Positions 61,402 through 64,000 of a stretch of 64,000 nucleotides of DNA are shown here, in pieces. Positions within the stretch are counted from its first letter, which is position 1. Each line of letters begins with the position of its first letter. The DNA lies in NCBI RefSeq assembly GCF_013315695.1, contig NZ_CP054353.1, one strand, 5' to 3'. A program made the translations under genes and the position numbers. Source of the stretch: Escherichia coli (GTDB lineage: Bacteria > Pseudomonadota > Gammaproteobacteria > Enterobacterales > Enterobacteriaceae). The notes under the pieces are model-generated. The model saw only the letters and a list, made by a program, of their open reading frames with translations. It was not told the origin of the DNA and did not search any database.

Positions 61402-64000
61402 TCAGAACTTATATTTCAGGCCCACCATCACTGCGGTGTCATTGTAGCCATTATCACCCAGCAGCACGCCCACATTACCCCAGACACTGGCCGCCGGATT
61501 CAGATTGCCATTTACGCCAAGTTTGATTTCCCCCAGATTACGCGCCCCGTCTTGTTCAACTTTCACACCGTTCATTGAGACAGCAAAATCTTTACTGTTA
61601 TGGATCCAGTTCATTTCAACAAAAGGTTCAAAGTCGTCACCGTGAGGACCGCTGTTTTTCTCCTGAGTACGAATAAAGGTGCGGAAACCAAGTCGGGTCT
61701 GGAAGTTGTTATTTGCGTCATTCTCAATACGTGAGCCATTGGCTTCCGTGTGCGCATTATGATCGACGCCCATCCAGATAGCCTGTGCCTGTGGCTGGAA
61801 GATCCACGTATATTTCGCCGCTTCCAGACCAAAGGATTTATTCAGGGCAAAGCCGTAACCCGCTTCCAGCGAGACGGTTGCGCCTTTCGCGCTATAGGAT
61901 TCATAGGCTAACTCATCCCCTTTCACCGAGTTTTTAAACCAGCTATATTGCGCCCAGGCGTCAATGTATGCGCCTTTTTTACTGATGTCATCGGCAAACC
62001 AGGTGGCATACAGCCCTGCGCTATAGCCTCTGACACTCCCTTTCGAACGATAATCCGACACGCTGGAATGAGTTGAGTTGTAGTCGCGGGCATAACCAGC
62101 CATCACTCCCAAACGCCAACTGTCACTGTCGGTAAAACCACCGGTTAACAGATCCGCCCCTAACTGCGAGACGTAGCGATGCGAGGTCGTTCTCAACTGT
62201 CCGTTGCTGTCACGCCAGGCATTATGCCCGCCAATTTGACGTAGCCAAAGTCGGCTTGAACGCTCCTGTTCAGTTACAGGATCGATGTAGCGCGTTTCAC
62301 CTGCACGATCGTTCAGACGCATAACAAAAAGAGTGTTAGCGGCTGCCAGGTTGGCGACGTAACTTCCAGCTTCGGGGCGCAGAACGGGGGTAGGCGCAAC
62401 AGTAGGCGCTGAACTTCCTCCGGAGTTTGTTTCACCGCCGCTCGTTGCCTGGAAGTTAGTCAGATACCAGTTTTTATTGGTCGCTTCGGTATTACCTCGG
62501 GTTAATGAATATTCGTAGGCACCGGCGAAAATCCTCGAATCCTTAATAAATTCCCCATTTGATTCCCCCTCAACGCTGATAATCTCTATCCCATTTAACG
62601 TGTAAGCCCCGCTGCCCCCAGCATTGGTAACTTTTACTCGGGTTGTTCCGGAGGTATTTCCATTAATAACAACTTTATCAGTAGCTGAATTATCATCACC
62701 CAATTCAGTTCTGAGATGCAATACGCCATTATTACCAACGTAATTTTCAGTTATTGTTAACCTTGTTGGTTCGAAATCCTTTCCATCTGCCCGGGAAATA
62801 TAGACCGTACTATTGTCAACCGTGAGCTTGCTCACCGTTGAGTCAGTTTTAATATCCCAGGTACTATTATCTGAAAGCGACAGATAGGTATGAGTGCTAT
62901 CATCTGTTGAAAGATTGGCTGAACCCGTTATTTTTGAATTAGATGCATCGATGGCCAAATGACCTTTAATATTATTAATAAAAACATCTGCAGCCGATGA
63001 TACCTCACTATCCGTAATGGTCACGTTACTCGTCTCATTTTTATTGTAGAGGATTTCATTTGCTGACCGTAGTGAGCTACCAGATAAAATATCTACCGTT
63101 GCTTCCTGACCATTTATGGAAGACTCCAGCACAAATCCAGCCCCCTGATGCGCGACTGCAGATGTATTTTTCAGCGTCACCTTGCCGCCATTATAAATTT
63201 TAGCAATCGCGGCGTCAGGACCCGTTGTATGAATTTCTCCCTGGTTAAATGAAACAGTCCCCTGGCGAGCAGCGATGGCATGAGCATTGTCCCCATGCGT
63301 GGTAATATCAACATCGGTTAATGTAACGCTGGCATTGGTATAATCAAGCTTGCTACCCGCCTTGACGACAGTGCCATTAGCGTAAGCGGCATAACTTTCT
63401 GTTCCGTGGGTTGTTATCTCCCCTTTTGCCATATCCAGTTTTGCTTTGGCGTTATTTTCATTACTTCCTGTATCGGCAGTACTTTCTTCATCAAGAGAAG
63501 ATACACACGCACGCGCGCTTCCGGGAGATGCACAAGCAAGAACGCCGACTGCGTGATTACCCGCAGTAACAATAAAAGTATTACCTTCGTCAGATAAATG
63601 GGGGTTAACCGAACCGTCAGTGTTGACTCTTATTATGGTATCAGTATTCAGGTTTCCATTCGTTTGACTTAGCAAACCAATTGAGTAATCCCCCGTCGTG
63701 ACAATCGTATTATTACCCTGCAAAATAACTGCACCGCCATATTCACTTACGACTGCGCTAGCTGTATATACTGTGCTTAGAGGACTATTGCCAGAAGGAT
63801 ATAAACCACCCGTTGTTACAATGACGCCTTTGTTAATGGTTAAATTGCTACCCTCTCCTGCAACAGATACCCCGTAACTTCCATTACCCGTTGTTATAAC
63901 TAGCGCATTATCAATATCTTTTACTTCTCCATCTTTTATTGCCACAGCATGTTTATATTCATCGTACTGAATAAACTGTTCAGCATATGCATTACCCACC
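61402..64000 (-). CDS. Large autotransporter adhesin (passenger plus C-terminal beta-barrel); N-terminal part lies beyond window end
   Basis: More than 865 codons open to the window edge; repetitive Gly/Thr/Asn-rich passenger and C-terminal barrel ending ...AVMVGLKYKF. Confidence 0.8.
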   Translation of the reverse strand, partial: VGNAYAEQFIQYDEYKHAVAIKDGEVKDIDNALVITTGNGSYGVSVAGEGSNLTINKGVIVTTGGLYPSGNSPLSTVYTASAVVSEYGGAVILQGNNTIVTTGDYSIGLLSQTNGNLNTDTIIRVNTDGSVNPHLSDEGNTFIVTAGNHAVGVLACASPGSARACVSSLDEESTADTGSNENNAKAKLDMAKGEITTHGTESYAAYANGTVVKAGSKLDYTNASVTLTDVDITTHGDNAHAIAARQGTVSFNQGEIHTTGPDAAIAKIYNGGKVTLKNTSAVAHQGAGFVLESSINGQEATVDILSGSSLRSANEILYNKNETSNVTITDSEVSSAADVFINNIKGHLAIDASNSKITGSANLSTDDSTHTYLSLSDNSTWDIKTDSTVSKLTVDNSTVYISRADGKDFEPTRLTITENYVGNNGVLHLRTELGDDNSATDKVVINGNTSGTTRVKVTNAGGSGAYTLNGIEIISVEGESNGEFIKDSRIFAGAYEYSLTRGNTEATNKNWYLTNFQATSGGETNSGGSSAPTVAPTPVLRPEAGSYVANLAAANTLFVMRLNDRAGETRYIDPVTEQERSSRLWLRQIGGHNAWRDSNGQLRTTSHRYVSQLGADLLTGGFTDSDSWRLGVMAGYARDYNSTHSSVSDYRSKGSVRGYSAGLYATWFADDISKKGAYIDAWAQYSWFKNSVKGDELAYESYSAKGATVSLEAGYGFALNKSFGLEAAKYTWIFQPQAQAIWMGVDHNAHTEANGSRIENDANNNFQTRLGFRTFIRTQEKNSGPHGDDFEPFVEMNWIHNSKDFAVSMNGVKVEQDGARNLGEIKLGVNGNLNPAASVWGNVGVLLGDNGYNDTAVMVGLKYKF

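Follow-up and report, generated by a model that had tools for sequence, protein, structure and literature searches.

The gene at the edge of the window

The 64,000-nucleotide stretch of Escherichia coli DNA analyzed here (the window) ends inside an open reading frame on the minus strand (61402..63999), which raises the question of whether the frame belongs to an intact gene for a large autotransporter adhesin, as the initial annotation had it, and what kind of protein such a gene would specify. The frame holds 865 sense codons followed by TGA and reaches the window edge without interruption, in agreement with the more than 865 open codons first noted. By our own arithmetic, (61/64)^865, such a frame has a chance probability of about 1e-18 and thus lies far beyond chance expectation.

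The remainder of the gene (a 50-nt extension), its start codon, and its promoter were read from near-identical E. coli genomes, not from the genome that supplied the window. The complete gene in three of these, MSB1_4I, AF3, and MS 21-1, is 2649 nt long and encodes 882 amino acids; RefSeq annotates it as an intact coding sequence in each, and an in-frame TAA lies 6 nt upstream from the ATG. Across the gene, MSB1_4I and AF3 match the window at 100% identity (with one single-nucleotide polymorphism each over 11.6 kb), and MS 21-1 is 99.9% identical. By the same three genomes, all that falls past the window edge is codons 1 to 17 (50 nt of coding sequence), with residues 18 to 882 and the stop codon lying within it. 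Extension of the frame upstream in search of frameshifts or stop codons yielded 17 more codons, the ATG, and no N-terminal lesion, so that the gene forms one unbroken frame and its proposed intactness holds. The start and the promoter do lie outside the window, as had been stated, but the full gene does not, since only those 50 nt are missing. The description "large" was overstated: at 882 residues, the protein is shorter than the AIDA-I (1287), YfaL (1250), and ECSE_1600 (1806) profiles that it partly matches and is better called mid-sized.

The window stops short of the start codon, and mobile elements are known to land at this locus: IS2 lies inside ymgF, about 0.5 kb upstream, in two of the three closest genomes, IS2 and IS5 occur inside the gene in other strains, and IS1 lies upstream from it in strain 700481. 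Both points would fit a gene that is disrupted in the window's own genome, whether the damage lies in the unseen 50 nt or a mobile element occupies the promoter. We consider this highly improbable, because the start is intact in all three closest genomes (99.9 to 100% identity over the gene and its flanks), the two genomes aligned over the 399-nt upstream spacer (MSB1_4I and MS 21-1) have it intact and identical, and the unseen part comprises 17 codons only. The IS2 in ymgF could nevertheless alter transcription of the autotransporter gene.

A classical type Va autotransporter

We conclude with high confidence that the gene is an intact allele of the autotransporter encoded at the E. coli ycgH locus (the "ECIAI39_1904 family" of NCBI) and that its product belongs to classical type Va secretion. 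The domain matches, sequence comparisons, and fold searches all indicate a classical autotransporter and support the interpretation given initially. The gene is already known and cataloged: its product and RefSeq WP_001571261.1, an entry named "ECIAI39_1904 family autotransporter adhesin," are 100% identical, and this exact sequence is present on 147 public contigs. The protein belongs to the family, as the members of its cluster carry the family name, and other members of 882 and 892 amino acids are 94 to 99% identical to it; the 892-amino-acid variants differ from this allele in that a GEVK-encoding unit is expanded in frame by 30 nt. The NCBIfam HMM library does not include the naming rule for the family, and the source names in the protein clusters were generic only. 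ECIAI39_1904 has been counted among VFDB virulence genes, with ST131 reported to lack it and ST38, ST405, and ST648 to carry it (PMC5654935). The searchable literature contained incidental mentions only, with no experiments on this protein, the ECIAI39_1904 family, or intact YcgH.

The canonical β-barrel C terminus described at the outset was confirmed. The outer membrane translocator (residues 600 to 882; 61405..62253, minus strand) matches PF03797 over profile positions 1 to 254 of 255 (E value, 4.5e-41) and TIGR01414 with 371 bits against a cutoff of 16, and it aligns with the AIDA-I transport unit (PDB 4mee). Its strands span residues 600 to 881 in the AlphaFold2 (AF2) model, and the final residues are GLKYKF; this AIDA-I-like C-terminal barrel of 12 strands, closed by an aromatic residue, is what a type Va protein should have. 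Upstream from the barrel, an AF2 helix at residues 559 to 573 (PEAGSYVANLAAANT; 62332..62376, minus strand), which also aligns with 4mee, is the linker α-helix and is predicted to sit within the pore of the barrel. Residues 404 to 516 (62503..62841, minus strand) form an AC_1 autochaperone domain that matches PF18883 over all of its 114 profile positions (1 to 114; E value, 6.1e-30) and overlaps a Pertactin-family match (PF03212; E value, 3.1e-9); searches of solved structures and with Foldseek matched the IcsA autochaperone 3ml3 (E value, 1.5e-20) and likewise 5ke1. The position of this type 1 autochaperone, between passenger and linker, is that of the AC_1 subgroup.

At the other end of the protein, inspection of the N terminus (MKLKKLPGFSLGLIALAVGNAYA followed by EQF, with residues 1 to 17 taken from the near-identical genomes) shows a basic n-region ahead of a hydrophobic core, with an AxA site. 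These features are those of a standard Sec signal peptide, with predicted cleavage between AYA and EQ, after residue 23. Its tail, residues 18 to 23 (VGNAYA; 63982..63999, minus strand), is the part that the window contains, and AF2 places a helix at residues 8 to 20.

An end-to-end alignment with the AIDA-I transport unit takes in the autochaperone, the linker helix, and the barrel (E value, 1.1e-82; Foldseek TM-score on target, 0.93; 34% identity), and the type Va AC_1-containing architecture is common to both proteins. The AIDA-I passenger, however, is about twice as long, and the imperfect repeats of about 19 residues found in AIDA-I, Ag43, and TibA have no counterpart in the present passenger, which gave no AIDA-repeat Pfam hit. 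The AIDA-I model NF033176 assigns the protein 317 bits against a cutoff of 1200, with only positions 848 to 1287 matching. The C-terminal halves of YfaL/EhaC, ECSE_1600, MisL, and ShdA also match strongly (NCBIfam; E values, 1e-46 to 1e-136), and the matches to ECSE_1600 and YfaL start within the passenger, at residues 343 and 284, respectively. The four bits/cutoff values for this group were 455/2335, 400/1297, 177/2249, and 158/1459. AIDA-I and these four proteins were rejected as equivalogs, all being below the curated whole-protein cutoffs of NCBIfam, the four far below, and no named adhesin equivalog in NCBIfam scored above its cutoff.

By the established type Va pathway, the precursor would cross the inner membrane via Sec, the barrel would be inserted by BAM, and the passenger would exit C terminus first; the autochaperone segment would then fold before the rest and template the stacking of the β-helix on the cell surface. 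Autocatalytic cleavage of the AIDA-I passenger reportedly needs the acidic pair Asp878/Glu897 (Charbonneau et al., 2009). The 4mee alignment puts Asp458 opposite the AIDA-I Asp and Ala477 opposite Glu897. Only the Asp of this pair is kept, and the passenger probably stays covalently attached.

The passenger and its likely role

The N-terminal part of the passenger (residues 24 to 403; 62842..63981, minus strand) is predicted by AF2 to be a right-handed β-helix, with pLDDT values mostly between 85 and 95. The passenger as a whole, about 500 residues, is modeled as all-β with high confidence, and the model of the entire protein has a pLDDT of 85 and a pTM of 0.78. Foldseek matched the fold to the IcsA, Ag43, pertactin, UpaB, and Hap passengers (E values, 2e-7 to 2e-4). 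On this structural prediction, the passenger would be the β-helix expected of a classical type Va autotransporter.

The passenger had also been called repetitive, which proved correct in one sense and not in another. The short motif [IV][ITVH]T[THA]G occurs seven times at irregular spacing (residues 51, 77, 116, 160, 212, 249, and 273), compared with 0.07 occurrences expected in shuffled sequences for a pattern that was itself defined after viewing the sequence. Tandem repeats and significant periodicity, however, are absent: Tandem Repeats Finder (TRF) found no DNA tandem repeats, a direct-repeat scan of the DNA returned a single weak 29-nt pair, and BLOSUM autocorrelation of the passenger gave no significant offset among 1 to 80 (none with z > 2.6). 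The 19-residue periodicity of self-associating autotransporters was likewise not seen by autocorrelation (z = -0.07 at offset 19). Self-BLASTP of the protein returned the diagonal alone and was uninformative on repeats.

The passenger probably serves as an adhesion or aggregation surface, "adhesin" itself being a name inherited from annotation. That the word is an annotation label leaves room for some other activity, such as that of an enzyme, a toxin, or an immune evasion factor. Residues 24 to 283 match no NCBIfam model, and relatives of the passenger are scarce (21 clusters at an E value of ≤1e-30 among 1.8 billion representative proteins). There is also a closely spaced cysteine pair, C173 and C182 (GVLAC-SPG--R-CV; 63505..63534, minus strand), in columns that are invariant in both passenger classes found at this locus; an acidic loop modeled with low confidence follows it, with a helix at residues 181 to 184 and pLDDT block means of 54 to 65 over residues 181 to 200, and this conserved Cys-bracketed loop could be a specific functional site. 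We nevertheless regard a non-adhesive passenger as improbable: Pfam and NCBIfam searches found no catalytic domain in the whole protein, the AF2 model is a plain β-helix without a globular insert, and the structural neighbors named above are adhesin or aggregation passengers.

Two passenger classes at the ycgH locus

The gene lies between ymgF and ymgD, where K-12 carries the pseudogene ycgH (b4491). K-12 ycgH bears two lesions, a stop codon in frame and a 3′ frameshift, that are absent from the window copy. Identity to K-12 is 93 to 100% in the signal peptide and in the linker and barrel (98.5% over nt 1 to 68, the signal peptide, and 97.3% over nt 1655 to 2649, the linker and barrel) and 92 to 98% per 100-nt window in the upstream spacer, whereas the passenger (nt 69 to 1654) has only 41 to 69% nucleotide identity. 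Alignment to K-12 ycgH thus delimits a variable passenger cassette of 43% GC (residues 24 to 551; 62398..63981, minus strand), and its breakpoints fall at the signal peptidase site and in the Pro-rich stretch immediately ahead of the linker helix. The intact 887-amino-acid "autotransporter YcgH" of other strains has the same domain order as the present protein, with 62% amino acid identity overall; in the passenger region, the closest non-self cluster (P0121) is about 45% identical. We therefore rejected the idea that the gene is a full-length orthologue of K-12 ycgH; its passenger is a different cassette, and the two are allelic by position only.

The dimorphism of the locus consists of two deeply diverged passengers carried on a shared signal peptide and linker/barrel: the ECIAI39_1904 class occurs in 1786 of 5426 complete genomes, versus 3271 with the K-12 (YcgH) type. 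It is conceivable, though we put this forward as a tentative conjecture, that selection (through host immunity, phage, or kin recognition) has preserved the dimorphism as an old polymorphism, with each state repeatedly knocked out. On that conjecture, the history of the locus would be more than the neutral decay of a dispensable gene.

Repeated loss, expression, and neighborhood

Most carriers of this passenger class hold independently broken copies. In an evenly spaced sample, 44 of 60 records were split into two open reading frames, two of five further family-named copies examined are pseudogenes, and K-12 and B2-like strains bear other lesions in the locus. O104:H4 and S19-651 have GGG in place of the GGGG tract at gene nt 178 to 181 (63870..63873, minus strand), which frameshifts the gene. 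Phase variation at this B1-type frameshift site was considered and rejected, a change from G4 to G3 being judged too short a tract for slipped-strand switching. Since the locus has been lost repeatedly, the intact state seen in the window is a minority state.

These losses make it plausible, although we think it somewhat less than probable, that the frame is intact while the gene is effectively cryptic, that is, silenced by H-NS, heading for loss, and without a contribution under normal conditions. The base composition points the same way, with 43% GC in the passenger and 34% GC in the 399-nt spacer that holds the promoter, outside the window, and the matching K-12 spacer has been reported as a SELEX RpoD holoenzyme promoter with an H-NS flag (PMC3946193). 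Against a cryptic gene, a sigma-S ChIP peak lies at the matching spacer in K-12 (1219400-1219949; PMC4447067), and the reported binding of sigma-S and RpoD implies a usable promoter. The frame is also unbroken across alleles that differ by 2 to 4% in nucleotides (CB6837, 2013C-4974, and 700481), and two full-length variants occur on 904 and at least 1000 public contigs, an abundance that argues for some purifying selection. The spacer itself is conserved at 95 to 98%. A search of the K-12 locus did not recover the promoter hexamers printed in the SELEX report (TTGACA-19-TATAAG; PMC3946193), and a consensus scan of the upstream spacer found no sigma-70 consensus on the strand of the gene. Expression of the intact autotransporter gene is probably low.

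The decayed remnant noted nearby is also real. An open reading frame at 59743..60186 (minus strand), 1.2 kb away from where the intact gene stops, is K-12 ycgI, annotated in RefSeq as a pseudogene with a missing N terminus; it represents the last 100 or so residues of a different autotransporter barrel and covers PF03797 positions 152 to 254 only. A decayed duplicate of the present gene was rejected as its origin (best pairwise E value, 0.17). Between the convergent stops of ymgD and the autotransporter gene lies a GC-rich hairpin with an 11-bp stem (61360..61384), which has a T-run on the plus strand, on the ymgD side; no structured RNA reached the Rfam gathering thresholds in 59000-64000. 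The locus adjoins bluRF/ycgZ-ymgABC/pdeG, a group in which several genes bear annotations as regulators of biofilm or cyclic-di-GMP.

As a gene call, the autotransporter at the window edge is real but ordinary and adds nothing new. Its value lies in the state of the locus: the intact copy shows the form that the K-12 pseudogene ycgH takes when unbroken, with one locus offering two alternative passengers on a shared export module, and most lineages have inactivated this locus, each in different ways. The intact copy is also a ready construct for testing the role of this uncharacterized autotransporter.

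Results

The open reading frame at 61402..63999 on the minus strand comprises 865 sense codons followed by TGA and is open up to the window edge, as described in the initial annotation; its translation ends in ...NGYNDTAVMVGLKYKF. All three of the closest genomes (MSB1_4I, AF3, and MS 21-1) carry the full gene as an unflagged CDS of 2649 nt (882 aa), which starts 50 nt past the window edge. Reading the upstream extension for N-terminal stops and frameshifts in these three near-identical genomes, which are not the window's own source, showed that the sole stop of the extended frame is codon 883. 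An in-frame TAA lies 6 nt 5' of the ATG, so the frame has no possible earlier start, and the 17 codons absent from the window, taken from the near-identical genomes, finish a standard signal peptide (MKLKKLPGFSLGLIALAVGNAYA/EQF). Because the extended frame has this single stop, a TAA before its ATG, and a complete signal peptide, intactness is favored, and the claim of an intact autotransporter is supported. The start does lie outside the window, as had been claimed for the full gene too, but essentially the whole gene lies within it. Nor is the gene large: the 882-aa protein falls short of the partly matched AIDA-I (1287), YfaL (1250), and ECSE_1600 (1806) profiles, so that we describe it as mid-sized and almost wholly inside the window.

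The 2599 nt of the gene in the window are 100% identical to the chromosomes of strain MSB1_4I (NZ_LR898874.1) and isolate AF3 (NZ_OZ547117.1); their identity to strain MS 21-1 is 99.9%. The product in MSB1_4I and AF3 is WP_001571261.1, named "ECIAI39_1904 family autotransporter adhesin"; the gene and the exact protein are thus already catalogued, and nothing in the gene itself is new. MSB1_4I, AF3, and MS 21-1 are again the best genomes for the last 25 kb of the window. Over the last 11.6 kb, there is a single SNP relative to MSB1_4I (58546, minD codon 84, T versus C, synonymous Tyr) and a single SNP relative to AF3 (55381, G versus A); the window's source is thus a third genome, very closely related to both. 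In the window, umuC is cut short by a stop at codon 371 (~51342-51344, minus strand), beyond which the frame stays open for ~52 codons; full-length UmuC is ~422 aa. The annotation of MSB1_4I notes an "internal stop" in umuC; in AF3, the gene is intact.

The canonical barrel C terminus noted initially was borne out by Pfam, in which the autotransporter beta-domain (PF03797) was matched across its entire profile (E = 4.5e-41, residues 584-843 of the 865-aa fragment; adding 17 gives full-length numbering). A type 1 autochaperone domain (PF18883; E = 6.1e-30, fragment residues 387-499) precedes it, overlapped by a Pertactin match (E = 3.1e-9). The only NCBIfam model above its cutoff was the generic barrel model TIGR01414 (371 bits versus a cutoff of 16); ECSE_1600, MisL, AIDA-I, ShdA, and YfaL/EhaC gave strong C-terminal matches that fell far under the whole-protein cutoffs. 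No catalytic domain was detected anywhere in the protein with Pfam and NCBIfam. Among solved structures, the closest by sequence was the AIDA-I transport unit 4mee (E = 1.1e-82, residues 430-882), followed by the IcsA autochaperone region (E = 1.5e-20). An AlphaFold2 model built from a 68-sequence alignment (mean pLDDT 85, pTM 0.78) has a helix in the signal peptide and an all-beta passenger between residues ~26 and ~530, after which residues 559-573 are helical and long antiparallel strands span 600-881. Its top Foldseek match in the PDB was likewise 4mee (E = 3.7e-24, TM 0.93 on the target), and the barrels of Hbp, EspP, BrkA, EstA, and NalP came after it; the passenger matched IcsA, Ag43, pertactin, UpaB, and Hap. 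Judged by its predicted domains and fold, the protein has all the parts of a classical type Va autotransporter and is of the AC_1 (AIDA-I-like) type.

The passenger had been called repetitive, which holds only in the sense of a short recurring motif. Tandem Repeats Finder reported no tandem repeats even with a minimum score of 30, a direct-repeat scan found one 29-nt pair at 72% identity and nothing else, and BLOSUM62 autocorrelation against 200 shuffles stayed at or below z = 2.6 for every offset between 1 and 80, including offset 19, typical of AIDA-I/Ag43-type repeats (z = -0.07). The motif [IV][ITVH]T[THA]G occurs seven times in the passenger (residues 51, 77, 116, 160, 212, 249, and 273), trailed by a small-residue pattern (VITTGNGSYGV, IVTTGDYSIGL, IVTAGNHAVGV, ITTHGTESYAA, ITTHGDNAHAI, IHTTGPDAAIA, and others); in 2000 shuffles its mean count was 0.07 and its maximum 2, a figure that is indicative only, the pattern having been defined post hoc. 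This motif is probably what was taken for repetitiveness, and its irregular spacing fits beta-helix rungs with loops of differing length. We also noted a Cys173/Cys182 pair in the segment GVLAC-SPG--R-CV (63505-63534, minus strand), invariant across two otherwise strongly diverged passenger classes and followed by an acidic low-confidence loop; the segment is a possible functional site.

The gene lies between ymgF and ymgD, where K-12 has the pseudogene ycgH (b4491). K-12 ycgH is 2648 nt long; its autochaperone region is interrupted by an in-frame stop, and a frameshift occurs ~75 nt before the end of the gene. It is not a simple broken copy of the window's gene: identity to K-12 is 92-98% per 100-nt window in the upstream spacer and 98.5% over signal-peptide nt 1-68, only 41-69% per 100-nt window from gene nt 69 to ~1654 (passenger and autochaperone), and 97.3% over nt 1655-2649 (linker and barrel). 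GC content splits in parallel (passenger 43%, K-12 37%; linker and barrel 51.5%). The shared 3' part is found in 5084 of 5426 complete E. coli genomes, the window-type passenger in 1786, and the K-12-type passenger in 3271; other strains have intact 887-aa "autotransporter YcgH" proteins. The shared 3' part, the two passenger classes, and the intact YcgH elsewhere together make the locus dimorphic, with two alternative passengers on one export module. Among 1.8 billion representative proteins (50% clustering), the passenger matched only 21 clusters at E <= 1e-30, its nearest non-self relative being cluster P0121 at 45% identity.

Intactness is the minority state. In a sample of 60 records, evenly spaced among 1787 with the window-type passenger, the annotation showed two ORFs in 44 and the family name in 15. 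The lesions differ: a G4-to-G3 deletion at gene nt 178-181 with a stop at codon 70 in O104:H4 C227-11, that deletion together with a stop at codon 22 in S19-651, a stop at codon 326 in O55:H7 RM12579, IS2 or IS5 within the gene in other strains, and internal deletions leaving only fragments in a urine isolate whose passenger is of the K-12 type. The gene is intact in CB6837, 2013C-4974, and 700481. At 63870-63873 (minus strand), the window has GGGG, and the GGG of O104:H4 C227-11 and S19-651 causes a frameshift that splits the gene. In some alleles, such as that of strain 700481, a 30-nt in-frame expansion repeats a GEVK-encoding unit to give an 892-aa form; the expansion site lies just past the signal peptide (~63918, gene nt ~133), where the window's copy contains only one such unit. 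Protein clusters with the window's allele contain full-length 882- and 892-aa forms and many 773-aa truncated forms. As a rough estimate, 15-25% of carriers have an intact gene of the window's class, which corresponds to 5-8% of complete genomes. In a published survey, ECIAI39_1904 was absent from ST131 and present in ST38, ST405, and ST648 (PMC5654935).

The decayed remnant reported nearby was confirmed: the ORF at 59743-60186 (minus strand), 1.2 kb from the intact gene, matches only positions 152-254 of the PF03797 profile, corresponding to the C-terminal ~100 residues of an autotransporter barrel, and RefSeq lists it as a pseudogene without an N terminus (ycgI in K-12). Its best pairwise match to the intact protein was not significant (E = 0.17); the remnant is thus the stump of a different autotransporter rather than a degraded copy of the intact gene, which implies that a second one once lay between minE and ymgJ. 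The region at 60200-60800, between the remnant and ymgG, is very AT rich (31-36% GC) and contains ymgI and ymgJ, both annotated as very small ORFs. The stop codons of the convergent ymgD and autotransporter genes flank an 11-bp GC-rich hairpin (61360-61384) that has a T-run on the ymgD side only and may be a shared terminator.

Discussion

In type Va secretion, the protein would be exported via Sec, with its signal peptide cut after AYA; the barrel would be inserted with the help of BAM, its pore occupied by the linker helix, and the passenger would come out C terminus first, its autochaperone segment folding early as a template for beta-helix stacking outside the cell. In the 4mee alignment, AIDA-I Asp878 lies opposite Asp458 and Glu897 opposite Ala477. 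Charbonneau and coworkers reportedly found in 2009 that this acidic pair is needed for AIDA-I autoprocessing; on that basis, Ala477 would suggest a passenger without AIDA-I-style self-cleavage, a lead rather than a result. Since the passenger appears to be a plain beta-helix with Ag43, UpaB, pertactin, and IcsA as structural neighbors, promotion of adhesion, aggregation, or biofilm formation would be the default expectation. A literature search turned up no experimental work on either this protein or intact YcgH, public protein clusters bear generic names only, and "adhesin" is best read as a label for a putative function.

The 399-nt spacer from ymgF to the start codon (34% GC) lies outside the window and is 95-98% identical among this strain, K-12, and O104:H4, irrespective of the allele or its state. 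In K-12, genomic SELEX placed a constitutive RpoD promoter with an H-NS flag in the ymgF-ycgH spacer (PMC3946193), and ChIP-seq gave a sigma-S holoenzyme peak at 1219400-1219949 (PMC4447067), which covers the ycgH start at 1219601. A simple scan of the spacer found no sigma-70 consensus match on the gene's strand, and the hexamers published in PMC3946193 were not found in the K-12 locus. We infer that expression would be low, H-NS dampened, and stationary phase. In MSB1_4I and AF3, ymgF contains an IS2 (7208-8436 of their locus records, ~0.5-1.7 kb past position 64000) whose end lies ~0.5 kb upstream of the gene start; ymgF in MS 21-1 is free of it.

The two-cassette locus, together with its repeated independent inactivation, is the only mildly interesting aspect of this gene. 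Such a pattern may stem from selection acting on a surface antigen or simply from the gradual disappearance of a gene that is dispensable.
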